From NCBI GenBank assembly GCA_903813345.2, contig CAIIXF020000001.1, positions 22,940,001 to 23,004,000 on the forward strand: a stretch of 64,000 nt of DNA, given 5' to 3'. The notes under the pieces are model-generated. The model did no database searches. It saw only the letters and a program-made list of their open reading frames with translations, and was not told the DNA's origin. The position numbers were made by a program, and so were the translations under genes. Origin of the DNA: Owenia fusiformis (lineage: Eukaryota). Positions 41,290-61,851 of the stretch are shown piece after piece (the first letter of the stretch is position 1; the number at the start of each line of letters is the position of its first letter).

Positions 41290-42449
41290 TTACTCGATCG
41301 TGCTTCAGAAAGTTCAAAATGGCTACTTAACGCAAAAATTCTCAATAATTATGGCTATGTAACACTGTACTATCATATAATAAAATTTTTAGATTCATGA
41401 ATAATTTGGTCGTTGGGATTTGCTACTCTGTGTAGCTGCCATTTTCTAGTTTTGTTAAGTACGGCGCCTTTGTTAATAACAATAACAATTACTGGATGGC
41501 ACTTGATAATTTTGGTCCTTGGTGTTATAATAGTGAAAGGTGTTCCAAAATCGATGCAGCTCTATGCATGGTACTGAATACTAAATATAATGTGACACGA
41601 ACCCTTTCTTTCTCTAGATAAGAGATTAATATATATAATAGAACAGTAGTCCTAGATATAACAATAAGTCATATGTTAGCGCAAGTTGATAAATGTTTAC
41701 AACAGTCAGATAAATAAACAAAAGATGATAAGAGATTTATTCATAGTCTTTGGTATCATATTGACAAATACAGGAATAGAGCTGTATACACACGCAATAT
41801 TCGTTGATACATTGTCACGAGCTATGCATAGAAATTAAATAGATATCATACAATCAGATAGTATATTTGTAATAAATATTAGGGGATACTGTCAAAGATG
41901 TAATCTCTCCCACTCCGTTTGGTTAACGAAAACTCACCTTTTACGGATATAGTTTTAAATATCACACGAAACTTATGTTTCTTCATTTATTTTATCAACA
42001 CTATCGTGTTTTACTTTATTCTATTATCAGATAATCGTAATACATTGTCTTATCGAAGTCATGACACATCCCCTATTAGACAATAGGTGACACCTTTGAT
42101 TATATTTAATTTTCGAGAGGCCACTACGTGCAAATCCACCACTAAAGGGATGTTTATAATGCTCAGGATACCATAATAATTTAATTACGGAGCAGTTTCA
42201 CTTCTTAGATGATTTTTAGGCTCTTGCGCTATTGATTCACTCGTCATCATATTTGCCTGTTAGTTTCCATGGCAATATAGAAATTTGAGATCAGCAGAGT
42301 TTTGATTGGATGTCAAATTTAGATGTTAATATAGTAAGCCTGCGCTAGTTGACCAACTCCTGACTTTCCATTAATTCTTACCACAATTAGCGCTAGGAGT
42401 TCTAAGAGAAGTTCGGGATCTTCCGAGGAGGAAATCAGGAACAACTACC

Positions 42450-45400
42450 ATGTCGTTTGATCTCGGATTGATGCTGCATACTCGCGAACGCAAACGCGCT
42501 TTCCAAGCGGGGCATGTTGGAAAACTTGGTCGAGTCGCATCCTTGGAGGAGGAAGACAAAAGTCTGAATCAGTATGTACACCGAAAGGAATTTTCAGATC
42601 CAAACGTGAGAGCGCAAAAGAATGATTCCGAACATGACAACAAAGACGACGATAATATGGTTGCCCAGGGATCTAGTAAAGTGTCGTCTCCAGACTGGAC
42701 ACGCTTTGAATCGGCATATGCACGAGGTATAGTACCCAAAACATATTTACTCAATAATGGTACCTAAACATGTCATTTAAAAACATTTGTTCTAGCCTCT
42801 TTGGCTAATGTGTAGATTACGATCCAGATACTTTGATAATTTCGTCAATCTGATCACCTGATGTACAAGAGAACAAGTGTTGCGTACCACGTTTCTTGTA
42901 GTTTCACAACTCAACTCGTCAAGACGTGATACCTAAAACAGCTAAAAAGTAATGGAATATGCAAGTTCCGTTCAATCACTTTAGAACAATCATAGGATAT
43001 CCTATGATTTTGAGGAATATCATTTTTATCTTTGACGAGGTGATATTGATATCTGCACGAGAAAGCAAAGCGAACGAGTGCATACATCAATATCACAGAG
43101 TAGATTAAAATAATATTCTGAAAAAAAAACACGGGATGTTCTTATTATCTTATACTTACAAGGAGTGCACTAAATGTATATTTATCATTGCAAAATGCCA
43201 ATTTCATGCCAAACAGAGTCAATTTGGCGGGAAATCAACAAGCGAAGTACATCGTCACAATATCCTCCGCATATTGAGGTTTCCGGAGAATATCGTCACG
43301 ATATCCTCCGCATATTGGTTTTCCGGAGTATATCGTTGCGATATCCCTCCTGTTATTCATTTTGCCAATAGATATCAAATTTATTTTTTAATGTTATTAT
43401 ACATTTAGCGCACTAAGTGTAGGATAATGGGCAATATTCTAGGACATAAATACCTGTTTAGAAACACCATGTTAACATTGAAATGTACTTGATTAAACAA
43501 TCGGTTTTAGCTGAATCTTCAAAGTTACAAAGATCGATCGCTAAAAGGCCTTAAAAATCGCATATAAATAGATAATAATATTAACAGATCCTTTTTAGTG
43601 ATACGATTCTTATCTTATATTTGATATCTCAGGTCGATACGACTGAAATAGCAGGAGAATATTTCTAATACAAGTATTGGCCTTATCCAGTGTTTATAAT
43701 TGTTTTTATAACTTTTGAAAATAAGTCAACTGACCTACTTTCCCGAAAATATTTTGCCGCAAAATACCTATAAACGATTTTGGATTTTCCCATATAACAC
43801 TAGTACACTATTCCATTGTAATTATTGGGTAAAGTCAATATTAGATAATCCTTCTTGATATCAATTTATGGACTCGTGGATATTTGATATTAAATGTTCG
43901 ATAAAAAAATGATATCACTCAAAGTGATACTATATTCTGTCATCTACGGAATGGCCCAAAACAGGCCAAACCAAAATAGAAATATTTTACTTTTGACATT
44001 TTAGCAATCATTTCCATAGTAAAGTACAGAAAGTACTTTCAATGGATGTACCTATTCAGCCTATGTTATCCAATTTGTTACACTACGTTCCTTATTCCCT
44101 GTGCCATGAGCTAAAATCAAAATTGTGCCCCTTTTCCCAAAGTTTGAGGATATATACAATTGTATTTGTATACAATATTGTAATTTGCATGTCAACCATC
44201 GACTAATCTGTCTGCCCTTTCGCATCCTATTAATTTATTCTTTGAATTCAGATAGGGTTATATTGTTGGATATCATTATTGGAATACCTCATCAACGTGT
44301 ACCATCTAAGGTTTTTGACAATGCTTCCAAATAGGTAAACAAAATGTTGTTGGCTGCCAGAAAATATAATTTCAATACCATTTGTCATGGTTTATCATAA
44401 TGGTTTTCTTCGAGAATACATAATGCGGGCCTGGGAATGCGGCGTGTCACATTCATTGCAACACACCTTGCAACAATGTCTTATGAGGGTAATTTCTTAT
44501 ATTGAGAAGTTTATCATCTGTTGAAATTAAATACTTGTAGCTATAAAAAGCGAATTTGTTTGACCAGTCCTAATGTGTGAGGAGGCCTTTCAGGCAATTT
44601 TCGAAAGCGTAGTGAGAACAAGTTTGGTGTAGAGGGGAGGGGGATATCTCCCACCTCGGTCTCTCTCTAATGCCTAGGCCACATATGCACCGGGCGCGGG
44701 CCGATGAGTAGTCATCGGCCGATTTCTAAATTAGTTTCGACAAAAATTATGTAATTCTGCAATTTTAGTTACAAAACATGAAGGTACATTATGTAAAATT
44801 TTTAAGACAATTGGTGTATATTTAACAAAATACCAGCACCAGTCCTGTTACTTTTGGAACACCCTGGACCCTCTGGAGGTGTTAAAAAACTAAAATGAAT
44901 CTGATATACACATAATCACAAGTGAATCATCTATTAATACATCACTCTCATTTTAATAATGACAATTCTAGATTTTGATTTATATCAAAAGTGTTCAATT
45001 CAACAGGCTAGGTGCATTTGGATTTGTGAAATGCAACCTGTGTAAGGGTAAGTTATCTTATAAAGGTAAATGACATTCTATATAAGCTGCCCTAGTCATT
45101 CCACAGTTCCAGGTGTTATTTTGTGGAGCCCATGTCTTGCCACATCACACGTGGAAATGAGTTTGACAAACCTTGGACATCTTTCTTTCAGTCCATGGAC
45201 TCTAAAATAACAAGAATTTGCATTGTCGGGAGCGTAAAATTGGTTATTTTGAATGCCGCCTCTTGTATTTTTCATCTGCCTCTTGTACACAAAGTTACTG
45301 AAACCACTGTATTAGGCATTTGGTGATTTCTGGGCAGTTTAAATGAACAAATATATTTATTGTATTAATACAACCAAAATCTTTTTTTTGAGTACATGAG

Positions 45401-48400
45401 GTTAACCGCTCATTAGATAATTTTATCATTGCAATGTGCTATTTGATGATATCTGGGTACTCTAAAATTAAAGTGTCTAAAACAATAGATATAATAATTT
45501 CAATTGTTTTTAGGGGTGTGAGATGTGGCCCACCCCCTCTGAAAAAATTATCATTTTAAGAGGCTATTAATGTGATTTCTGGGTAATTTTAAAGAGTATG
45601 GGTTATTAAAAAAGAAATTGGGAAAATATTCAATTTTTGGAGGGGGGTGTGCTAGAGGGGAGTGCGGTACCGGTATTTTCACAATGAATAGTATTTTCTT
45701 TGTCTAATAATGTGTTCTTGAATTACTTGTTATTTAGTTTTCATTGGTAGTTTTTACAGTTTCTATAAAGTCATTTGGTTGGCCATCATTGACATATGAC
45801 AAAATAAAAGTTTATTATTTTGCTGTTTTTGACGACATTGCATTGACGGGTATCCCAGGGATTTTACGAGTTCGCAATGACTATGATGAGATCCCTCAAG
45901 GATATGCTTTATCTTATTGTCATGAATTAAGTTACTGGCGACAATGAGAAGTTTACCTAAAGGAGTGGTATCGATATGGAGAACTTTTTGAACACACGTT
46001 TCTCTTAAACCAGTCATAAAAAATCTAAAAATTGTACACATCGTCAATTTAATGGTCATCTTTTGATATAATTTGAAAAATATATATATAGTTTATCTAT
46101 ATTGTTTTAGAAAACACATCAAACACTTGAAAGTGAAATGAAACATCTTTCCGAACCTCATTGGAACAAAACGACATAAACAGTACATGTTTAGGTTTCT
46201 CAATATTGTAATTGTACAAAGGAATTGGTTGATTTAAAAAAAGTATCTTGTTAATGAAATAAAAGGTTTATATTGATTTTTATCTATTTTGGGGGGATTT
46301 TGTTTTAATTTTTTGAATACTTTTTTAAAATCAACCAAAAATTCCTTTAAATAACTATAATATTGAGAGGTCTAAAAACATGTTGTATATGCTATTTTGT
46401 TCCATCAAGGTTCGGAAAGACATTTTATTTCATTCTCAAGAATTGGTAGAAAGGAGCAAAAACAATTGCACTAAAAAAACAAAAAATGTTAACAAAAACA
46501 GTTGTATAAAATATTTCTAAATAATTTTCGCATTAAATTGTTGTCAATCAGTCAACATTACATAAAATACCGTGTTTTTTACAGAATGTTTTCAATAATT
46601 GGTTTAAGAGAAAAACATTGTTGAATTCAGTTCTCCATATCGATACCAATCCTTTGCTAGAGTTAAAGTTTCGTCCCCATATATGAGAAAATGAAATCTG
46701 AGCATTAACAATCCACGACCAGCATTAAAGGAACCCAGTTTCTGGTTTTATCGTTTCATTTAAAATTCAAATATGACTGAATTGTATTGTTCCGACATAG
46801 CATCAATTCATGTGTAAAGATTTGGTTTTATTTTCCTATAACGACCCAAGAGATTAATAAAAAATCGAAATTCTTCGTCAAAAGTATTGATGCCCCTTAA
46901 ACGTGATTTTGATTGACACCTGAGGTTCAAAATTGCTTGATTTTTGACCTTAGTACACTCAATGTCTCAGTGGGAATGGAGTTGCATCTAGCAATTTTAA
47001 ATTAGCCGCGAAACTTTTGACCAAATATGTTTGCGCTCTCATTTTCAATAGGTTATCACCCCAATTCAAATGGTATAGCTGAGGGCAAGAATACTGCATA
47101 TTAAACCTTAATTGTATGCCAATTTTGTTTTGTTTTTCAAATATTTCTAAAGGATAAAAGTAAACATCAAATGTGTTTCCTGAGCAAAAGATATTAAACG
47201 CATCTGTTCTAGTTGATACAAACCTGATGCGTCTCGTATATTTTCTTATCTGAATTAGAGCATTTAGCCTCATCATTCACTGTCAAAGTTCTATGTTTTC
47301 TCTCTTGCAGGCTCGATATCTCACAGTTCAAATGAGATGACTATTAAATCACAACTAATTTTCGATCTACTTTGACGTTTACATGCCGAGTTGATGTTCA
47401 GCATATGGCCATATATCTTTCTTGGATGTGGGCTTTATTTAGAGACATCTACTTAATCCCTAATAAAGCTCGAATATTATCTGCACAAGTTCCGTGAACT
47501 CGGCTGAATCATGACTTAGAACGCTCCTCTCATAAATGAAATATTGAAAAAGCCACCTTCAGTCTACTTGGTAGTTTTAAATCCCAGATTCCCGCAAATT
47601 GTTCGGAAGCAATTGTACGTATTATCAAGTATCATTATTCTCGCGCACCCCCCCCCCCCTCCCCCCTCCACACACACACATACAACGATAACCTTTACAT
47701 TCTATGGACTGTTCTTTCCAGAGTTGTTCCCAGCAGGAGGTGGAGGTCATAAAACTCAGGAATTTCTTTTAGAGGTGACCAACATACTCATAGATTATGT
47801 CCACAAGAATAATGATCGTTCAAAAAAGATTCTTGATTTCCACCACCCCCACCAACTACGCGAGATGATGGATCATTGTCTCGATCTCCACGAGGATCCA
47901 CGAGATCTCGAACAAATTCTGAGTGACTGTAAAGAGACATTAAAATATTGTGTCAAAACAGGTAAATACAACAATTTCTTTTCGAAAATCTTGAGAATTG
48001 ATAAAACAATTTTACTCCTCTGAAATTTTGAAAAAACTTAAAGATCAACGTTTTAAACGTTGATACTAACAGACTAAATCTGAGTTTCTTAATACTTAAA
48101 AAAACCACATTGTCACGAAGCACCCCTGATCTGAAAATAAATACAGCTCGACAAACGGTAACGCCAAGACCTAGATACATGTAACTCCATCGAATATTTC
48201 GTTCTTGCATAACAAGAGGTCTTGGGATAGGAAGATGGGACATGGAATGGAACATGGAACATCTTCAAATGTGGCTGTTCAAAATAATATTTTCGATAAT
48301 ACTAATCTGTGTTTGTATCATATAGTATGATTTTATTGCCTTGTTTTATGATATTAGTTATATTATGATATTAGTGGTTGGTTGTTAGCAAGAACATTTA

Positions 48401-51400
48401 ACTGTGAGACAAAATTATAAAAAAAATCAAAGGAACATAATTTCCTCATAGTATTTAGATGGTTATTTGTAAACAAATTAGATTAAATTAATCAAAAATT
48501 TAATAAAGTCAATTTAATTCCCCAGGTTTGATGATAACTAAAGCCCGGTATACACCAATGGGGCAAAATCCCACTTGCCCCATCGAGTCCCATCTTGCCC
48601 CATCGAATCGCAATTTGCCCCATCGAATCCCACGAAGTCCCATGGGACCTTGATGACTTTGCCCCATCAATCCCCATGGAGTCCCATCAAATCCCACCGT
48701 GCCCCATTGGTGTACATGTATGTCGGGCTTCACACAACACGTCATATGAGCGAAAATCCCACGATGCCCCATGGAAAGAATGAACATGTTCATTCTCGAT
48801 GGGACTCCATGGGACTCCGTGGGATTTTGCCCCATCTTGCCCCATCGAGTCCCACCGAGTCCCACGTGGGACTTCATGGGACCTCATGGGACCTCGTGGG
48901 ACTCGATGGGGCAAGATGGGGTTTAATCCCACGAGGTCCCATGGAGTCCCACGGACTTCATGGGGCAAAATCCCAAAAGGTCCCACGAGGTCCCACGCAA
49001 TGTTAAGTCTTTGGAGGCCCCAACTTGCCCCATTGGTGTATACCGGGCTTAATATGATCACGTTTAATAAGTTTATACTCGGGAAAGGTTCTTTAAAAAA
49101 CAGAATGTTTTCTGATTGTAAAAGTATTGCTATGATGGTGATGTTAGGAAGAGAGAAGTCCGATATAGTTTTGAAATATCAGACCCTTCTCGATTTCCAA
49201 TCAGAATATTTTCTGATTGTAAAAGAATTGCTATGATTGTGATGTTCAGAAGAGAGAAATCCGATATAGTTTTGAAATATCAGACCCTTCTCGATTTCCA
49301 AAAGAATTGCTATGATGGTGATGTTCAGAAGAGAGAAATCCGATATAGTTTTGAAATATCAGACCCTTCTCGATTTCCAATCAGAATATTTTCTGATTGT
49401 AAAAGAATTGCTATGATGGTGATGTTCAGAAGAGAGAAATCCGATATAGTTTTGAAATATCAGACCCTTCTCGATTTCCAATCAGAATATTTTCTGATTG
49501 TAAAAGTATTGCTATGATGGTGATGTTCAGAAGAGAGAAATTCGATATAGTTTTGAAATATCAGACCCTTCTCGATTTCCAATCAGAATATTTTCTGATT
49601 GCAAAAGTATTGCTATGATGGTGATGTTCAGAAGAGAGAAATCCGATATATTTTGAAATATCAGACCCTTCTCAAATTCCTCTCTATTTCTGTGTAACAA
49701 GAGAAGTCAGTATCATCCTCTTGTATACATGTATAAATCATTATGATAAAGACTCAGTCTCCACCTTTCTTGGAAATACGGAAAAGAATTATATATAAAA
49801 ATGCGGAAGTTTCTATAATTCTAACCACAAATCACCGCAACATAAAATGACAAATTCAAGGTTTGGTAGCCCAGATGTTATTGACGCACGATAATCAATT
49901 ACCCATTATACTAAATGTTGCGAAATGTAACACTCGAATTAATTCAACTTAATTGTTTGCAAATTTAATCTGTAATATGTTGACCGTTTTGGCGATGGAC
50001 AAGAAATAATTGATTAGACCTCCAACTCTTTTCTTTGCCTCAGAAGTTTAAACTATTTACCAAGCTTCCATCAAGAACACATGACAGCTTCCCAGTAAAA
50101 ATCGAAACTATCGGGCAGTACTTGAATGATGACAACTTTCCAGGAATAGTCGGTAGAAGAGCTTACATTACTTTTGGTTATGACTTAGATTTTAGAACAT
50201 GGCGATCAGCAATGGCGTAAAAAGGGCACAGGTCAATAAAAATGACATTAATATGTAAGAAACTGTAATATTCTCGAGCTTCTCTTGCCAGCTGTTACCA
50301 ATTGTGTAAATCACAGGGAGCTCAGTGGAAAATTAGACAATAATGTCTCGTTAACACTGTGCCAGAATAACTGAGATGGATATTTAAATCAATTTAGATT
50401 TCCTTGTGGGCGGAAAATTTCCAGCGTTTTTTAATCCATATAACAAAATATCTGATTAATATATCAATGTGCCTACTGATTTGGTACAACTGATTTACAT
50501 GTACAGGTGTATTGCGTTGTGATTTTCAATAACATCTATGGAGGTACTGTGAGGCACGGGCAGGCGAGGCTAGTGCCTCACCATAATTTCAACTAAAACT
50601 GGAAATGAATCCCAAAGGTAGTAATATACATTCGTTGACCTTTAGCCTTTTGCGCTTTTTGTTTAGTTATAATTATGATATCAGTCATATCAACAATGAT
50701 TTCAAACCATGATTTCAAACAGTACGCCCTTTTTTATCTATCAGTATCTTAACCATGGACGACATTTATAAAAGAAAGCGCGTGCGAAAGATTTCAGTGA
50801 AACTGCATTCGATCCTTTCCATATAGTTTGAGAAGAAGCATAATTCATAAATTGTAAACGTAATACTTTTACTCCTTTTGTCATTTTCAAATATATTCAA
50901 ACCAAGGGCAAGTAAAAGAATAGTCTGATTCCATTGAAATTTGCATTTCTTCGATAATGATGAATCATTACATCAGTAGGTATAAGCTCATGATTATTTA
51001 GAATGACGATATGAGCAGTGCTTAGAATCACATCCTCTCCAGACAAAATTTTTTTTTATCAAAATCGTTGGTATGTTTTGTTCAAAATAGTGAGTAGCCA
51101 AAATTCAATGATTTTTAATTAAAGGCAATGGTCTAACTTTGAATAATGTTTAGGTCATCCAAGATTTTTCAACCAGCTGTCTCAGGGCTTGGACATAGTG
51201 GCACTTGCTGGGGAATGGCTCACTGCAACTGCGAATACCAACATGTGAGTGCTCATGAACGTATCTGTTACAACATTATGCGAACGTATATGTTACAACA
51301 TGTTGCGAACGTATATGTTACAACATGTTGCGAACGTATATGTTACAACATAATGCGAACATGTTACAACACATTGCGAACGTATATATTACAACATAAT

Positions 51401-54400
51401 GCGAACATGTTACAACACATTGCGAACGTATATATGTTACAAGATACTGCGAACGTATATGTCAGAACATAATGCGAACGTATATGTTACAAAATGTTGC
51501 GAACGTATATGTTACAACATAATGCGAACGTATATGTTACAACATAATGCGAACGTATATGCTACAACATAATGCTAACATATATGTGAGAACATGTTGC
51601 GAACATATATGTTACAAAACAATGGGAACGTATATGTCACAACATGTCGCGAACGTATATGTTACAACATAATGGAAACGTATATGTTACAACATGTTGC
51701 AGACGTATGTTATACCATATGAAAAAGTAAGCTAATCCGTATACAATGCAAATCATACTGACGCCCAAGCTTCATCATTTGAAAAAGAGTTTATGGCGCA
51801 TGTGCAGTGACATGGAATAAAAAGAAAATAATCATCGAAATGTATTTCATTTGACTTGTCCAATGTATCTTGACTGGCAGCTGACTATCTCGGGCACAAT
51901 ATACGAAATGTACTTCACTCAGTTGCAAATCATTAAACGTCCTGCATATTTATAGCTCATTGTATTTAATTTTGGCATGTTCGCGTATGAGATTGCCCCT
52001 GTTTTTTGTTAGGTTTACATACGAAGTCGCCCCGGTATTCACTCTGATGGAAGACATAGTGCTGACCAAGATGAGAGATATTGTTGGCTGGTCTGATGGT
52101 GACGGAATTTTCGCACCAGGTTTCAATCTTTTTTATCTCAAAATAAGACAGAGTTATATTTTCGAAATATGAATTATGAAATGAACAATTACAAATAATA
52201 GCCTCCTTCTAGGCTTTCTCTTAATTTCTTTTTCTTAGTTTTCGTATTCTAATTTTGTCTCTGGAACAAAACACAACGTTCAGTATATTGAGCAGACGTA
52301 GGGTTTAAATGACATGTATCCCATGCTTAACTTCTTTCGATGAATTCTATATGAAGCAAGAGAATGTTACTAAACATATATCAATTGCCAACGTACATTC
52401 ACGTAGGTAATGTAGCTTCTAATGTGTGATATAGGGGGCGCCATTGCTAACTTGTATGCTGTTTTGGCCGCTAGGCATCGCTGCTGTCCAGAGCAAAAAG
52501 CACAAGGAATGTGTGGACTCACCAGACTTGTAATGTTCACATCAGAGCACGTAAGTTTACCAATCTGAAAGAGACACGAGGGGAGGAATAAACTACATAC
52601 ACAAAATAAATACTTGAAATATGAACTATAAAACCGATCCTCAAATCCAGAGCGGTCGATTTACTACGATGAGAAAAAGAGGTAATTAAACCCTAAATTC
52701 GAACAGAATTCTTCCGCAGGGACAGATTTTTATTTAATAATCTGTCATCTAAGAGGGAATTATTTCTAACCTTATAACTCAACTCAGCTTTAACTTGCAA
52801 TAGCCGTCTCTTGTGTCGATGGTTCTCGAGAGCTCATTTACATAATCAGAAATGTTCCCTGCGTGGGTGTAACATCAATATGCGTCCTAACTAAAGTCTG
52901 ATCGTCAGTTGACGTGGGCTCTTCTGTTGACAAACTGTAAAATCAATCTTCGCAGTTTAAATAAAAAAACTAAATTTTATGAACATTCGATATGGTTAAT
53001 CAAACTTAAAATAATCTAACTCTATAATTAACGAGGAAATTAATACGACTCTAAATTGTTTATTCAACTAACAGTGCGGTAATCGTAATAGTGATATTGT
53101 TAAATTTACTGCACTTTTTCTTCGATTACAGAGTCACTTCTCAACCAAGAGAGCTGCCGCTATTGCAGGGATAGGCACCGACAACTGTATTGCCGTAAAA
53201 TGTGATGAGAGGTTAGTGTTTCGGTGATGTACTATAGTTACATGAGTTAGGAGTCACATTTTGTCTAGTAACAAAGAGCATGTCCAATGAGGCGTAAAGG
53301 TCAGATAACTAAGGATGAATTTGACCTAGATTATAGATTCATCGTGCAACTGTACGTTACAGTCACTTGTGAACGTGGAATGAATATAGAACTCATAATC
53401 GGTCTTCCTTAGCGCAGTCGGTCCTTTGGGAATGGAGCATTTTGCGAACAGTTTACTTCTAATTTGTGTCATGTTGAATGCTTATTACAGATAAGAGACT
53501 CAGGTCACCATATTAATTGGTTGAAGATGGACAAACCATTCTTTATAAAGTCCCGTCAGAAAGTCTTCGTATTAGTCCACAAACTCATACCCAGTCTTAA
53601 GCATATTACGGAAAAGAATCACATACAGAAAAGAATCCTTGTATACAAGGTGGTCCGAAAATATAGACATAGTGATTACTTTTCTCTTATTTACTGTCTT
53701 TTTTCTTATCATAACTCAGGTGCCATTGCTACAGTGTATATTTTGCTTTCTAGAGGAAAGATGATTCCAGGGGAACTTGAGAAGTGTATTCTCCAAGCAA
53801 AATCAGAGGGTGCCAAACCATTCTATGTGACATGTACCACCGGTTCAACTGTTCTTGGGGCGTTCGATCCCATCAATGAAATAGCAGATATATGTGAGAC
53901 ATATGGAATGTGGATGCACGTGGACGTACGTATCAGTCCTTTAAGGCCACATATAAGTTTAAACCACTTTACTTATATTGTAGTCCTACCCAATGCTATC
54001 AAAATGTGATATGTTAAACTTTTTTCAAAATTTTAAAAGAGTTTTTTGAAGGACTTGTTTCGGAAAATCGTTAACTAATTTAAATTAAAATTAAATTAAA
54101 CTTTAGAGGTCACACTTATTTTTGGTTCGGTTCTTAAATAAGCAAAAAATTACTCATCTATGCATCAAAGTTGCTCACAGAAAATTGTATTTTAAAATTA
54201 TAGTTCTTATAGAAACCAATGGTGCGGTGACATTTAAAACATAATGCAAATCTTTTTTAATTAAACTACAGTTCATTCTATTTAGTTGCTTGTTCTGTTA
54301 ATTAATATTAAACCTCATTTAGGAAGCAACATAATAGAATGAACTTCTTTTGTTACAGCTAAGCTAACTTAAAAATTCTCCTACATGTTATCCATGTTCA

Positions 54401-57400
54401 ATATATATCTCTAAAGCCCCTGAAGGAATTACTTATTCCTTTAAAGGGTTTATTTGTGTGTCAAAACGCAACATATTGATGCAAATAGAAATTGAAAAAG
54501 CAGGGTAGGAAGAAGTTCGAAATCAGGACAGCATTTCAGAAAAAAACATGTGGGTGGGTTGTTTGCATCCATACCATACCATATACCGTTCATAGTAGAT
54601 CTAGACAATGTGTGTTTTTAAGTCTACAATTTGCTGTAGAGGGGGGTGCTGTTGTTTTTTGACACCCTGTACAGTGTAGACTATAGCTATTCGTACTGGA
54701 AGAATTATTTCGCCAAATAGACATTTCCCATGGTTTATCTAAATTGATTATTCTTTCTTTAATAGTACCTAATCCATTATGTTCTTATTACAGGCAGCTT
54801 GGGGCGGAGGTGCTCTGTTGTCCGAACGTTATCGCCATCTTTTCAACGGAGTAGAGAGGTACACATATATGTAAAAATATCTAATAATTCTATAATTTTA
54901 AGCATTCGTATGGGACAACTCCATCTTTAAGACATTCCTGAAAAAGCAATATGCTCTATCATCGAATATTGTTCAAAATGGAATAATGATAATCTGTTTT
55001 TATAACTGAACCGCCATCCTGTCCTTGAATGATTTCATAAACTATGCTATTATGATAGTTTTTCTTTGTACCTTTGCATATTCCTATATCCTAAATACCA
55101 TTTCTTTAGATGTGATTCCATAACATGGAATCCTCATAAAATGATGGGAGTTACTCTGCAGTGTTCAGCTATTCTACTAAAGGAGAAGGTATCTTTGATT
55201 GAAACCATATGTATTTATGCTGTCACCATTGCACATAAATTATACAATTACACATACATATCACCATTGCGCATACGTGCCACAATTATCAATGCATGTC
55301 ACCATTGTACGTTAATGTCAATATTACACATGTTTCACCATGGCAACCATTACACATGCATTCATGTCAGTATTACTCTACATGTCACCATTACCCATAG
55401 ATGTCACTATTACGCAAATATATTGCAATTACATGTATATGGCACTTTTATGCACACATCATGTCACCATTACACACACGTGTCACTATTATACATGTAT
55501 GTCACCATTACACACACACGTCACATTTACACGTACGTCTTTCATGTCACCACTTCAGATACTTGCCACTATCATGTGTACGAGTCGCAGTTACACGTGG
55601 ATGCTCACCATAGCACATTCATGTCACCAGTATATTCACATGTCACAAATACATTCACATGTCACCACTACATTCACACACACACCCGGGCTGTTTTACA
55701 CAATCTTCTATCCTATAGCTTTAGTGCAACTTCAATAATTCCGCTTCCCACATTTTTAATAATGACCTCTAATAAGGTGACATGAGGTAGTCAAAGAGCT
55801 TTAGAATGCAAACCTTGGCTTTCAGGATCTCAACTGAGTAATTCAGAACTGTTTTTAGTTCCGATGATGCCCTTTAAAGGCGACCTCAGTCTAAAATGTG
55901 GAATGACCTTACATGACCCAAAAATGAGTCTCCAAATTCAAAAAGTAGTTCAAATTCATAGTAGTTATTGACCAGCCAAACGACCTTTATTGTCACATTA
56001 GACTTCGAATGTCGTTTTGGTCGACACATAGGGATCGAAACCAGCCATAGTTTTCTCTTCATGAAATATTGTGCTTTATGGATTATGATGTTGGCTTTGA
56101 GGATAGATGTTGACCCTTTGTTGACCCGTCTGTGGATTTGGGATAGGATTTTATTTGTCCCACATCATTTGAGACAGGGTGCTCTATCTTGTATTTGAAT
56201 ACTACATGTAGATATAGTATGTACAACTATTTTTGATGTCATGAATATTGGTTATCAATTTAAATTCATTCTTCAACATGTAATGACTTCAGTAAGAATG
56301 AAATGTCTCTTTTTATGGCCCTTTATTGATTGTGATAATGGTGGGGGAGGGGTATTCCCGGGGGTATGAGACATTAACCCTAGTTACTCTAGCAGTAAGG
56401 AGCAGTGTGAAGCCTGAACATACAAAGTCCATTTAGGAAAAAATATTCCAAGCTTAAGCAAAATAATGTACATGCGCTCGAACTGTGAATGTATGTTATC
56501 ATTAGGATTTAATGGATTCGAGTTGTAGAATCATAAAGTCTTATATGTTCAACTTCTTCAGGTTGTAAATTTTTGATACATTGAGTAGTTTTTCAAATAT
56601 TAAATGGTAAAATTTTAAATAAAACTTGGCCATTAACAAGTTCACATACACATTTGTGTTCTAATCAAGTCATAGACAATTTCTGGTTTTAGATGTTGTA
56701 CTTTTTGTATGTTTAAAACAGTATGCTAATTTCGAACTTGCTACAACAAACAGATTTCCAACTAGATAAATGGACTGCATGTGAATTAAATTGAATGAGT
56801 GATTAATCGATTGATTTATTCTCAATAAATTGATTGATTGCTCGGTTCCATGTATCAGTCGATTCATGCATGAATGGTGCCACAATATTCACAAGTTCTT
56901 TTTTTGTACCGTGCACACTCTAAGGGCAGACTCAGTTACATGGAACCCTCACAAGATGATGGGTGCCATGCTCCAGTGCTCCGCCATTTTGTTAAAACAC
57001 AAGGTAAAATATCGTAAGTCTTGTGATCAGTTTTGATAAAACCAAGTCGCTTGTGTCATTCTGTGATGTATTCCCCATCATGTCGTTCGCATTATGATTT
57101 ATATTCACAACTGATTTCCCATCGCATCTTTTATCGCATAATTTTATTTATGAATTGAAAACACAGTACTTTTACGATATTTTTCCTTGTTTTGCGTTTG
57201 TTATATTCCTCTGCTATTTTATTCTTTAATGCGTTGCACGGTTTATATGTATATGTTTATATGTTTTAGTTGTTTTTAGCATTATGTAGTCAAACAAAGG
57301 GGCAGCAAAGACTAGAGACCTCCTAACTTTCTAGAAACTGTCACATTTTTACAATGCATTTTGCTCACAATATTCTCTTTCGTGCCTTTTTTCTCAGTTT

Positions 57401-59862
57401 TAACCCTTTCTCATGGTAATCGTTTATTTAAAGATATTTGGCCTTCACTCTAAAGGTGAATTCTATGCCTTCTACTTGTGATCAGATAACTATTAAGGCT
57501 GTAAGAGAAACATCGCCATGTATTTTTAAAATATCCCATCCAACATTTTAGACTCTATTCTTTGATGCTGCTTTAACCCTAGTTTAAGTGCCCCATGTAT
57601 AGCCACAAAACTTTGTGTAGGCAAGATCCACTACCTCAATCATCCCATTCTATAAATTCCATAATACTTCTATATATAAACATTCATATATCTGAAATGA
57701 GATGGAAATCAAAAGTATCAATACAAAAATACTCGTTTTTATAATTCTTTTAAAAGCTTTTTACAAAAAAACTAATTTTTATAATTCTTATAAAAGCTAC
57801 AAAAATACTTTTTTATAATTCTTATCTTAAAAAGCTACAAGAATACTTATTTTTATAATTCTCATAAAAGCTATAGAAAAAGTGATGAATAAAAGTTACT
57901 TATAATGTCTTAATGTATTAAGTAGAGTCTGTTTCCCTTGTTGAATACATTAACGTCTACTATACTTAGCGACTCCGTTTTAACACTTTCAAAATGCTTT
58001 TAGGACATTCTGAAGAATTGTAATTCCATGTGCGCAGACTACCTATACCAACAAGACAAGCACTATGATGTTGTTTACGATACTGGAGATAAAGCGATAC
58101 AATGTGGACGACACAACGACATCTTCAAGCTGTGGCTAATGTGGAGAGCAAAGGTATTGAGACGGTTTGCCCACCTTAAACAATGCTTCTTTCGATATTA
58201 CATCATTCTGATACTCATCACATCTTTCTGTGTTCATCTAGAAAGAAGCTGATAGACACCTGTGATTTTACATGATGATATTACATAGTCTAGATACATC
58301 AGACTTGCACACAAGTGTGAGAAGGTGTTTAGGCAAGTAGTCGAGGGTTCACAGAGGCTTGTAGCTAGACTACTAGATGTGCAGTCATATTTTTGAACAC
58401 CCTGAAGATGAAGGCTATGTATTATGGATATGTTTAAAGGCCCCATATAAAGTTTAAACCACATCGTAATAGTTAATAACTTTCACAGTCATGAAACATA
58501 ATAGTAAATGTATGATGAAAACCTTTTTTTTCAAACTTTGCATGGGGCCTTTAACAGAGGTATACAATTTTCAATCCAACCATGTTAAAGGATTTAAAGG
58601 ATAATTTAAACGGGTTATCTGTCATTTTGATTAATTATGTGATGATTCTATTGTTTTAGGGCGATAAAGGACTTGAGTCTCAGATAAACAGAGTTTTTGA
58701 GCTTGCAAAGTAAGTAGACTTGAACAGGGTCTCCAGAAAAGATCGTCCCTTGATTAAACGCTATAATGACTTTCTAGACACTCTTAACTCACAGTATATA
58801 GGATTAGAATTATGATCACATTATTGAAAAGTATAACTTGTAAGTATAAGATGCAATTTTGATAAATAACAGTGTTGTATATTCCATATTCTAATACAAT
58901 TTCTTAAAATTATTAGGTATTTAACAGAAAAGATACGAGAAAGGCCTGGATTTATGATGGTGATGGATGAGGTACATTTTAAGATATATCATGGTTGTAG
59001 CCAGCCATGAGGCAGGCGAGACATTTGCCTCTCCAAAATTTGGTAGAAAACATTTATGTAACCTTTTTTCAATTGAAATCCTGTCAATGAAAAATGATAG
59101 TATCGTACAATGTATATTACGTTTAACAATTTTACACCACTTTTTTCTCGCATTGCCCATTTCTTGATCCTTGTTACACCCCTGTATACTGGCGGACTTA
59201 AACGCAGTAATCAATGAATTGTGGGTTGCATAATGCTCTAGTTTTCTTTATGCTTATAAAAACGAGGTCTTTAAACGAGCTCCTAGCCATTAAGTGTGAT
59301 TAATAGTTATTTATCAAATGGAAAGCTCTTTTGGTAGCATTTATTTCTGTAATAAGCACGAAATGAAGTGTGTTTTAATGTTTTCAGCCGGAATATACAA
59401 ACGTATGCTTCTGGTATGTGCCATCAAAGATCCGGCATTTGGAACAAGGGAAAGAAAGGGATGACGAATTGTCCAAGGTAGGGCCGGATTGAAAATATTT
59501 TTCAGGATAATAATTGTCTAAAGATTATTTTAGAAACGCAATTTTGGATAATCAAATGGGCTAGACGAGGCCAGACTCGACAGACGTGAACAAAGCATTG
59601 ATCTTTTAGTAAACGTAAGATTATTATCATGTCTACCTGAATTTCAATGCATTTACAATACCATTGCATTGATTGAACATACTTTCAGGTGGCTCCTCGT
59701 ATAAAGTCGATGATGATGGAAGGTGGATCTACGCTTGTGGGATACCAGCCACTAGGAAAGAAACCAAACTTTTTCAGAATGGTAATCAGCAATCCTGCAG
59801 CAACTAAGGAGGACATCGATTTTCTATTAGAGGAAGTTGAACGTTTGGGTGAAGAAATATAA
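42450..59862 (+). CDS. GAD: Glutamate decarboxylase (PLP-dependent group II decarboxylase), 581 aa with either exon 9 variant
   Basis: Phase-consistent exons 42450-42726, 47722-47961, 51154-51244, 52013-52119, 52435-52550, 53132-53211, 53754-53925, 54794-54858, [55110-55188 or 56925-57003], 58004-58153, 58660-58709, 58917-58971, 59388-59477, 59689-59862. Motifs [29 protein letters not shown] (GAD-type rather than CSAD/GADL1-type residues), [39 protein letters not shown]. Confidence 0.95.
42930..43430. mobile_element. Inverted copy of the 2280-2830 element, in GAD intron 1
   Basis: Reverse-complement match to 2400-2810. Confidence 0.7.
45961..46653. mobile_element. Whole-length palindromic non-autonomous element (Kolobok-like AGG termini, tentative)
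   Basis: AGGAGTGGTATCGATATGGAGAACT / AGTTCTCCATATCGATACCAATCCT; inner arms ~46140-46250 and ~46315-46430 are also mirrored. Confidence 0.7.
48542..49049. mobile_element. PIF/Harbinger-like MITE (TAA TSD) in GAD intron 2
   Basis: TAA|AGCCCGGTATACACCAATGGGGCAA…TTGCCCCATTGGTGTATACCGGGCT|TAA; core of GTCCCA/TGGGAC 11-mers. Confidence 0.88.
49100..49675. repeat. 101-bp tandem repeat, ~6 copies (one with a 22-bp deletion)
   Basis: Unit TCAGAATATTTTCTGATTG…CAGACCCTTCTCGATTTCCAA starts at 49201, 49381, 49482 and 49583. Confidence 0.92.
51255..51715. repeat. ~25-bp minisatellite at the start of GAD intron 3
   Basis: (TGCGAACGTATATGTTACAACAT(GT/AA))n. Confidence 0.9.
55110..55188 (+). CDS. GAD: GAD alternative exon 9a (PLP-lysine exon): [26 protein letters not shown]
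   Basis: tttctttag|ATGTGAT…GAGAAG|gtatct; 79 nt; phase 2 in, phase 0 out. Confidence 0.9.
55220..55685. repeat. Degenerate ~20-bp ATGTCACCATTACAC minisatellite just downstream of GAD exon 9a
   Basis: Repeated (A)TGTCACCATT/TGTCACTATT units; source of the His/Thr-rich spurious ORFs. Confidence 0.85.
56925..57003 (+). CDS. GAD: GAD alternative exon 9b (PLP-lysine exon): [26 protein letters not shown]
   Basis: cactctaag|GGCAGAC…CACAAG|gtaaaa; 79 nt; same phases as 9a. Confidence 0.85.
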
Positions 59863-61851
59863 GGCGATGATTCTGAATAAGCGGTGTCAGAGTAGATCAG
59901 ACACGTGACATATTGTTTTTAAGCTTACATGATTGGATGAGGATATATTGCGTTTGAGTAGATCGGACAATGCAAGTGACATCTCCTATTACATGATTGG
60001 ATGAGGAACTGCTGAATCAGATTAGATCTGATCATGTGACATTTAGTACGTTCGAAAGGTTCCGAATTTGCTGTGTCAGAATATATCGGATCACGTATAA
60101 ATTGTATATCGTCATTACCGTAGTTTTTGCAGAGATATATAGGGTTTGTTCCGAATCTTCTTTTTCAGAGTAGATCAGATCACGTTAAATATAATAGTTA
60201 TAATTATGGTTGGGTGAATCGATGTTTCCTATTCAAGGGGTTGTCTAATACCCGGGACTTATTTTTGTGTACCAAACGAGACAAAACGACATCCGGGGCT
60301 TAGTATCTCCCTCATTAGACTTGTTCCTATTGGTCGATAGATTGGTCGTATTACGTTCTCCCTTGGATTATCTAAGATGTAGATCAAACCTTGATCTTGA
60401 TTCGAAAACTTCTAAGTTCAGATCATGTCAAGTGACGATACAACTATATTCAACTATATGCAGACACCAGTATAGTGCAGTAGACAATACTAAGTACATA
60501 TTGTATATATATAGTGTTATTTAAACAAAATATATAAATGAATATGAATATAATATGTGTTGAGCACGAAATTCATGTTTGTGAAGGTTGCCTTTGGGAT
60601 GAGCTCTATGCCATTTAGACCAAAGACTATTTGTAAATGTGAGAAATATATATCTAAATTATTTTTTGTTTATTTTGCAACGGAAGTAATATTTGAAATT
60701 TGACATGCCAAACATGCCAAAGAATAAAGTATGTAATGCAATGTAATATCTATAACACTGATCTACACTCTCCTCCATAAGTTTGGTAATCCCGATTCCT
60801 CTATTAATTCAAACTTACACAGGGGAGTGTATTGTATATCTATTATGCATTCGAATCATTTGAACTGGTTAAACTACATACTTATCCATAGTGTAGGTGC
60901 AATAGAAATACTGTACTATAACCTTTCTCATTTAAAGTCCGAACGTGTTTTTTCTTTTTTTGAAAGCGGCATAACAAATAAGCAGATGTTTAGAGGGAAT
61001 GCCAGATTCATTATATATTGCAGTAATAATTAACGTTAATTAGAATACATGTTGGAATATGAGATAAAATAGAATAAAGAAATTAGATGAAACATACATT
61101 TATTTCTGTTTTATCAGTATGTAGAATTTTTTTCTATATTCTCAGGCCCAATTGTTTACAAATCAATAACAATATACGTACATAATTCCAAAACACATTA
61201 TATACTTGTTCTGGATTCATTACAATTGCATAAAGATTGTAAATCAATTAATTTCAAAACTCAAATTAGCCACTTCAAAAACTGGTGTCCAGGTGAATGG
61301 CAAGTTCATACTTCAAAACAAAGGACAATATATTTAAAGCTGGGCTGTATAGGGTGACTCAAAAGTCGTTACCCTCTACTTTTGGAATACCTTTCTCAAT
61401 TATGATGGACTTTTCGTGAATGATTTTGCGTAGGTAGAGTGTTCAATGCATGAAACGTTTGTGTATTTACATAGCATTCATGATTTGTAGATATGAATAT
61501 ATCATGTTTTCTGAGGAGGTATGCCCTGACGCCAAATCACTCAAAAATGTTTGTGTTTCTTATTTAACTAATAACCAAATCAGTACATCATATTTCGCAA
61601 CATGAATTTAGAAAACTGGGTAGATGTGACATATATTGATAATGTAACCAGCTGAATGTACCAAAAGCCATCCAGAAATTACTTAAATAATGGCGAAGAT
61701 AGATATCCCAATTTTAAGCATACTTGAAGGGAACACCCAATCACTCTAAATTTAAAATCATAGATGCAATAGAAGTACATTCTGATACTCAAACCATCTT
61801 TCTGTTTCACTTGAAACATCTCAGGGCTGAGAAGAAATGAGATGTCATGGG

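Follow-up and report, generated by a model that had tools for sequence, protein, structure and literature searches.

Tandem duplication of an exon followed by either-or splicing of the two copies is a well-known route to protein diversification, and as a mechanism it is unsurprising. Mutually exclusive exons of this origin include exons 9 and 10 of PKM, exons 5a and 5b of SNAP25, exons 8 and 8a of CaV1.2, and the flip and flop exons of GluA. Vertebrates also possess two forms of glutamate decarboxylase (GAD), the enzyme that makes γ-aminobutyric acid (GABA). These forms, GAD67 and GAD65, are the products of two genes (GAD1 and GAD2) and differ in their occupancy by the cofactor pyridoxal 5'-phosphate (PLP). 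The subject of this analysis is a GAD gene of Owenia fusiformis, an annelid whose lineage is sister to all remaining annelids. The gene lies in a 64,000-nucleotide (64-kb) stretch of DNA, the forward strand of contig CAIIXF020000001.1 from position 22,940,001 to 23,004,000 (assembly GCA_903813345.2), which is referred to as the window. Positions below are those of the window, and all features described lie on its forward (+) strand. Exon 9 of this gene, which encodes the segment with the catalytic lysine, is present twice. It is probable, at roughly two chances in three (0.65), that the two copies, called 9A and 9B, are a mutually exclusive exon pair that originated from an old tandem exon duplication.

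According to this model, the 79-nt exon 9 would have been duplicated in tandem long ago in the O. fusiformis GAD gene, and both copies would have been kept by purifying selection. Splicing of one copy out of two would then yield two full-length enzymes that are five residues apart, and the reading frame would enforce exclusivity, at least as far as the product is concerned. The locus resembles the class of mutually exclusive exons in that the homologous exons are adjacent, have identical length and phase, are embedded in unrelated introns, and are both conserved. Likewise, the predicted isoforms would differ by a few residues in the functional core of the protein. Unlike the examples listed above, the GAD exon encodes the catalytic PLP-lysine of an enzyme that makes a neurotransmitter. 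A further difference is that the GAD pair has so far been seen in one species, in which the use of the second exon is predicted from its sequence.

Exon 9A spans positions 55110-55188 and exon 9B spans positions 56925-57003. Both are 79 nt in length, both are flanked by AG (55108-55109 and 56923-56924, respectively) and GT (55189-55190 and 57004-57005), and both run from phase 2 to phase 0. They lie on the same strand, adjacent to each other, between exons 8 and 10. The annotated protein of the gene, CAH1773736.1, contains 9A. The two copies are identical at 53 of 79 bases and differ at 26, and they have 21 of 26 residues in common. When the split Arg codon is included, 8 of the 27 codons are identical, 14 differ only synonymously, and 5 are replacements (C/A, I/V, V/A, T/M, and E/H, with the 9A residue given first). 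Codon counts, the estimate of nonsynonymous divergence, and the peptide identities reported here were obtained by hand. A tblastn search showed that residues 383-409 of CAH1773736.1 match the window twice, with 100% and 81.5% identity (E 3e-9), and no other whole exon of this protein matched twice in the window. The motif coding for WNPHK occurs two times in the 64 kb, compared with zero occurrences expected from 100 shuffles.

The similarity between the two copies is confined to the exon. A repeat search recovered 9A and 9B as a pair (D6), and an alignment with 150-nt flanks showed that the likeness stops at the exon borders. The intron between the copies (55189-56924, 1,736 nt) resembles neither intron 8 nor the intron between 9B and exon 10. 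The first-pass annotation of this DNA had described two AG/GT-flanked exons of 79 nt in phase 2/0 at these positions, with flanking introns that show no visible similarity. Its coordinates, length, flanks, and phase hold, and its codon tally of 8, 14, and 5, together with the named replacements, was reproduced exactly. The intron between 9A and 9B is itself repetitive. It contains a degenerate tandem repeat with a 19-nt period directly 3' of 9A (about 55219-55681) and a repeated element around 56295; the degenerate tandem repeats of this gene's introns make up families D1-D3 and D5. In the intron that follows 9B, an 18-nt direct repeat (D12, 89% identical) is present at 57393-57410 and 57973-57990. 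Its second copy precedes the acceptor of exon 10 by about 14-30 nt, a position at which a branch site is expected.

Could the second copy be an artefact of assembly or of haplotypes? The first-pass annotation had named an assembly artefact as a way in which its claim would fail, and no point in support of either was found. The copies are 1.8 kb apart and have unrelated flanks, and their 26 base differences (of 79), together with the unrelated introns, effectively rule out an artefact. Further evidence comes from sequencing data. Three raw RNA-seq runs carrying the same species label and one contig run (X1) were compared with positions 42000-61000. In X1, depth was 9.3 in the bin of 9A and 4.2 in the bin of 9B, although X1 may share the sample of the assembly. 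An artefact thus has a negligible probability.

The reading frame makes the two copies exclusive at the level of the product. The last two bases of exon 8 (54794-54858) belong to an Arg codon (phase 2), and the GT at 54859-54860 forms the 5' splice site of this exon. Exon 10 (58004-58153) is 150 nt long. As 79 is not divisible by 3, the inclusion of both copies or the skipping of both shifts the frame into an early stop in exon 10. When both are included, 9B is open in the shifted frame and is followed by a TAA at 58021-58023; when both are skipped, a TGA is encountered at 58011-58013. In other words, an enzyme results only if one of the two copies is spliced in, as had been claimed from the first reading of this DNA. 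Both premature stops are at least 130 nt upstream of the 3' end of exon 10. Since the next junction is thus more than 50 nt downstream of either stop, transcripts with both copies or with neither should give no enzyme and would probably decay according to the usual rule of nonsense-mediated decay (NMD). To our knowledge, the rules of NMD in annelids have not been established. The pair therefore resembles frame-dependent exclusive pairs backed by NMD, in which an exon length such as 79 nt causes wrong inclusion to place a stop well before the next junction. It differs from them in that the decay of the aberrant GAD forms is assumed.

How old is the duplication? In 22 codons, 9A and 9B encode the same residue. 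Nineteen of these codons can vary synonymously, and 14 of the 19 differ, which is the level expected from fully randomised synonymous sites. The number of nonsynonymous substitutions per site (dN) between the copies is about 0.13, a rough estimate, and the corresponding number for synonymous sites (dS) is saturated. The exon duplication is judged to be old because the synonymous sites are saturated, and its age is also argued from the flanking introns, which cannot be aligned.

Evidence for selection comes from a comparison with other animals. Eighty GAD loci of unidentified animals were fetched from metagenome contigs using exon 10 as a query. An alignment of 62 exon-9 peptides was prepared from 60 of the 65 metagenome loci that bear WNPHK, together with 9A and 9B. 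Four loci (L005, L018, L026, and L056), presumed to be duplicates of neighbouring loci, and one (L054) whose motif lies at the contig edge were left out. Nine columns of this alignment are invariant and three more are at least 90% conserved. Exon 9B keeps all 12 of these columns and exon 9A keeps 11; the exception in 9A is a Cys where nearly all others have Ala. Compared with GAD exons present as a single copy, 9B is identical at 23 of 26 residues to Lingula, 22 to Apostichopus, 22 to Hofstenia, and 21 to human GAD67. The corresponding values for 9A are 22, 23, 20, and 21 of 26. By these counts, the two copies resemble each other about as much as each resembles distant GADs. A rough estimate gives a probability of less than 1% that a neutral copy at 0.2 substitutions per site would keep the approximately 27 constrained nonsynonymous sites. 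Purifying selection on both 9A and 9B is inferred because a neutral copy would not keep its constrained sites, its length, its frame, and both of its splice sites. Such selection on both copies would imply that both are used. An old duplication with both copies under purifying selection was also what the first reading had proposed, and the saturation, the unalignable introns, and the intactness of both exons agree with it.

A different explanation is that 9B is an unused relic (pseudo-exon) or was recently silenced, and that the gene makes the annotated 9A enzyme only. This would account for the fact that databases contain the 9A form only. What it leaves unexplained is the state of 9B. Although the synonymous sites are saturated, 9B has no stop and no indel, its AG and GT are intact, it keeps 12 of 12 conserved columns, and 21-23 of its 26 residues are identical to those of brachiopod, echinoderm, and human GAD. 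A long period of neutral evolution would be very unlikely to leave such a pattern, and only very recent silencing fits it. A relic is thus regarded as unlikely, and exclusive use of two selected exons remains the preferred interpretation.

A feature that may govern the choice between the copies is an inverted repeat (I1) at the 5' splice site of 9B. Its 5' arm (56996-57017, 22 nt) starts 8 bases before the end of 9B and extends 14 bases into the intron, thereby spanning the 5' splice site. Its 3' arm (57172-57193) is located within the intron between 9B and exon 10. The arms are 22 nt long, 91% complementary, and 154 nt apart, and I1 is the longest among the best 25 of 36 inverted repeats in positions 54600-58300. 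When up to 3 mismatches were allowed, the arms were the only matches in the window, with 0 expected from 100 shuffles. A 221-nt RNA around the 9B 5' splice site is predicted to fold with the I1 stem at z = -3.96, and none of 200 shuffled sequences was as stable. Windows of equal size at the 5' splice sites of exons 8, 9A, and 10 gave z = +1.0, +1.4, and -1.2, respectively. This predicted stem is the new element of the present analysis.

What might the stem do? The occlusion of splice sites by local RNA stems is known from exon 10 of tau and exon 7 of SMN2. Exon-intron duplexes also serve as ADAR editing sites near alternative exons, as at the R/G site of GluA2, which precedes the flip and flop exons. 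The predicted 22-bp duplex of exon and intron covers the 9B 5' splice site and in this respect resembles both kinds of element. Unlike the stems of tau and SMN2, it closes a 154-nt loop rather than forming a short hairpin, and it is known from a prediction on one sequence. The stem formed between the end of 9B and the intron 154 nt downstream would hide the 9B 5' splice site, such that 9A would be the default choice and 9B would need the stem to be opened or bypassed. The stem is read as a likely brake on 9B that would render 9A the default; a role in editing, or no function at all, is just as conceivable. A stable stem burying the splice site could also mean that the site is never used, which is a point in favor of a relic. 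If the stem acts on splicing, it would provide a simple and testable handle on exon choice.

Other known mechanisms of exclusivity find no support in this gene. Steric hindrance operates where the intron is shorter than about 60 nt, and the 1,736-nt intron between the copies is far too long for it. A docking site and selector arrangement of the Dscam type would involve a site that pairs with the neighbourhoods of both exons. No such site was found among the best 25 of the 36 inverted repeats mentioned above, and the search for it gave only weak AT-rich pairs such as I17. Incompatibility between U2 and U12 splice sites, as in JNK, was considered as well. The 9A 5' splice site resembles the U12 consensus at 7 of 8 positions. 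In the two relatives that were read (L040 and L065), however, the homologous intron has ordinary U2-type GT sites and the exon borders are the same, and this mechanism is likewise unsupported.

The five residues that differ between 9A and 9B are located at -9, -6, +4, +5, and +15 relative to the Lys of NPHK, the residue that forms the Schiff base with PLP. They correspond to exon positions 1, 4, 14, 15, and 25 and map to positions 304, 307, 317, 318, and 328 of the 2okj chain. NPHK itself is present in both copies and aligns to the NPHK of 2okj and 2okk. Positions 14, 15, and 25 vary freely among the animal GADs in the 62-peptide alignment. Position 15 (+5) is T in 9A and M in 9B, and human GAD67 and GAD65 have L and P there, respectively. 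Position 1 is Ala in at least 90% of the peptides and position 4 is Val or Leu in nearly all of those listed; 9A alone departs from this, with Cys and Ile. As a result, the 9B peptide is nearer to the general animal GAD consensus than 9A at these two positions.

The departures at positions 1 and 4 raise the possibility that 9B is the exon really used and that 9A is unused, having been taken by the gene predictor because it was met first. In line with this, 9B looks more ancestral, and the annotation pipeline included ab initio prediction (PMC9977687). Exon 9A is nevertheless as intact as 9B. It keeps 11 of 12 conserved columns and the same length, and it has good splice sites and a clear polypyrimidine tract. 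The argument against long neutrality applies to 9A too, which makes its disuse improbable.

Position 14 bears on yet another explanation, namely that ectopic recombination or gene conversion recently brought in 9B as a copy from a diverged paralogous decarboxylase gene and that 9B was never selected here. Such a copy would explain the saturated synonymous differences and the intactness of 9B together. Moreover, 9B has Ala at position 14, as do human CSAD and GADL1, where both human GADs have Val. Ala at this position is, however, also common in invertebrate GADs. Furthermore, 9B scores best against GAD67, followed by GAD65 and then by CSAD and GADL1, and it has the exact borders and phase of the resident exon. 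A recent copy from a paralogue is accordingly held to be very improbable, and a tandem duplication within the GAD gene is preferred.

How would a mutually exclusive pair in Owenia compare with the vertebrate enzymes? As with GAD67 and GAD65, two GAD forms would exist in one animal, and the +5 residue differs in both cases. The vertebrate forms are encoded by paralogous genes and differ over their whole length, N-terminus and catalytic loop included, whereas the Owenia forms would differ by five residues in one exon, and their catalytic-loop region is encoded by the common exon 10. Any difference between the 9A and 9B enzymes in the handling of the cofactor is conjecture. A far-reaching version of the model, offered tentatively and with more doubt than confidence, is that Owenia makes two GABA-synthesising isozymes by swapping the PLP-lysine exon, with the swap being stem-gated or editing-marked. 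The pair would then be a splicing counterpart of GAD67 and GAD65, and its Cys/Ala, Ile/Val, Val/Ala, and Thr/Met changes near the lysine would tune cofactor retention or redox sensitivity across neurons or life stages.

The interest of the locus lies in its location, that is, in a duplicated exon that carries the catalytic lysine of the GABA-making enzyme. If both forms are made, they would be natural enzymes that are five residues apart near the PLP site, and they would offer a clean comparison for the residues that determine cofactor occupancy. This property is usually studied with GAD65 and GAD67, which are much more divergent. If 9B is silent, it is merely an unusually well-preserved pseudo-exon.

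Several observations weigh against the use of two exclusive exons. Exon 9B is present in no annotated protein, and no protein bearing it was found in a collection of 5.8 billion proteins. A 50-aa query from the 9B region, which includes intron read-through, retrieved 34 proteins, none of them identical to 9B; the best match was from Lingula, with 71% identity over 76% of the query. The cluster of the annotated protein at 90% identity has one member, and the one 100% match in a protein search with exon 10 was the protein that contains 9A. Even the choice of 9A may not rest on reads, since the gene set of Owenia combined RNA-seq assemblies with ab initio Augustus models (PMC9977687). The same paper gives 31,903 transcripts for 26,966 genes, and an unannotated minor isoform would be unremarkable in such a set. 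The stem, for its part, is a prediction made from a single sequence, unsupported by covariation.

RNA data add little on either side. In the three raw RNA-seq runs, mean depth was at most 0.5 in the bins of exons 8/9A and of 9B, so the gene is barely covered and the runs are uninformative on either exon. Nearly all RNA reads fell on intronic repeats, and the joints listed (15 of 56) include no exon-exon joint of the GAD gene. The splicing of 9B into mRNA is predicted from the genomic DNA. The first-pass annotation had proposed two GAD isoforms by splicing. The parts of this proposal that stand are the old duplication, the intactness of both copies, and the frame that admits one copy of two; the presence of 9B in mRNA, on which the two isoforms depend, stays a prediction.

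The intronic repeats on which the reads fell form four stretches, at 45804-47071, 44536-45169, 53972-54679, and 57850-58483. They had an RNA depth of up to about 70 and a very high contig depth, and they did so in all runs. Many of their reads had loose ends, and a backward joint connected 58462 to 53972. These stretches look like expressed dispersed repeats (transposable elements) rather than GAD transcription.

The second copy was also sought in other animals, with results that again speak against the pair. Among the 80 metagenome GAD loci, the WNPHK-coding motif was found once in 65, was absent in 15, and was found twice in none. A second, independent motif (HK..LQC) was found once in 66 of the 80 and twice in none. 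In 19 of the 80 loci, 2 kb or more of sequence precedes the exon; two of these 19 have no intron before exon 10 and may be transcripts. The lack of a second copy in other sampled animals counts in favor of a relic. However, the 80 loci include no close relative of Owenia, so the absence bears on the spread of the duplication and not on its use. On this sample, the exon 9 duplication is not widespread. In 10 clusters, isoforms of one species labelled X1, X2, and X3 were seen for four other invertebrates, and judged by length they are not equal-length exon swaps. Isoform lengths were 591 and 617 in Apostichopus, 608 and 635 in Amphiura, 593, 569, and 528 in Branchiostoma belcheri, and 513 and 514 in Daphnia magna.

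Two further observations were made on deposited GAD sequences. In the models of Phthorimaea operculella (a moth) and Ostertagia ostertagi (a nematode), a segment like exon 10 is present two to three times in near-identical form, which inflates the match scores. These segments look like artefacts of assembly or of gene models rather than alternative exons. A GAD-like protein of Helobdella robusta (a leech) has NCHM in place of NPHK and is thus without the PLP-binding Lys. It may be a paralogue that has lost activity or the product of a faulty gene model.

The first reading knew of no such pair in GAD, and the literature agrees with it as far as it was searched. No published mutually exclusive or duplicated exon pair in a GAD gene was found in keyword searches whose results were judged mainly by titles and the starts of abstracts. 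Among the papers listed on alternative splicing in O. fusiformis, none deals with GAD by its title or the start of its abstract.

The identity of the gene appears secure. Residues 84-580 of CAH1773736.1 align to human GAD67 with 766 bits, compared with 706 for GAD65, 575 for CSAD, and 566 for GADL1. The nearest named proteins are GAD1 or GAD, and the precomputed Pfam assignment is PF00282 (Pyridoxal_deC). Because the bit scores rank GAD67 above GAD65, CSAD, and GADL1 in that order, the gene is classified by sequence similarity as a GAD orthologue (GAD1/GAD67-like) and not as a cysteine-sulfinate or aspartate decarboxylase. The predicted function of its product is the decarboxylation of glutamate to GABA. 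The window contains one GAD gene.

The coding span of the gene extends over positions 42450-59859 and comprises 14 coding exons plus the extra copy of exon 9. The exon map was obtained by tblastn of the O. fusiformis protein CAH1773736.1 (A0A8J1U915, 581 aa) against the window, and its borders are approximate. Segments of the protein that lie wholly within exons matched with 100% identity, and the remaining segments overrun exon borders into introns. Upstream of the exon 9 copies, the matches are 42450-42725, 47721-47963, 51153-51244, 52013-52121, and 52434-52550 for exons 1-5, followed by ~53129-53212 and ~53740-53925 for exons 6 and 7 and by exon 8 as given above. Downstream of exon 10, the matches for exons 11-14 are 58660-~58715, ~58918-58971, ~59388-59480, and ~59689-59859.

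Two minor features were seen in intron 3. A degenerate tandem repeat with a unit of roughly 38-39 nt occupies positions 51250-51700. Closer to exon 4, a 30-nt stretch (51977-52006) that ends 6 nt before the acceptor (52012/52013) mirrors the codons of the exon 3/4 junction. It is identical to the junction at 7 of 9 residues and at only about 17 of 27 bases, with differences that are mostly synonymous, and it has no in-frame acceptor. The stretch looks like a small, old, partial duplication of the start of the exon.

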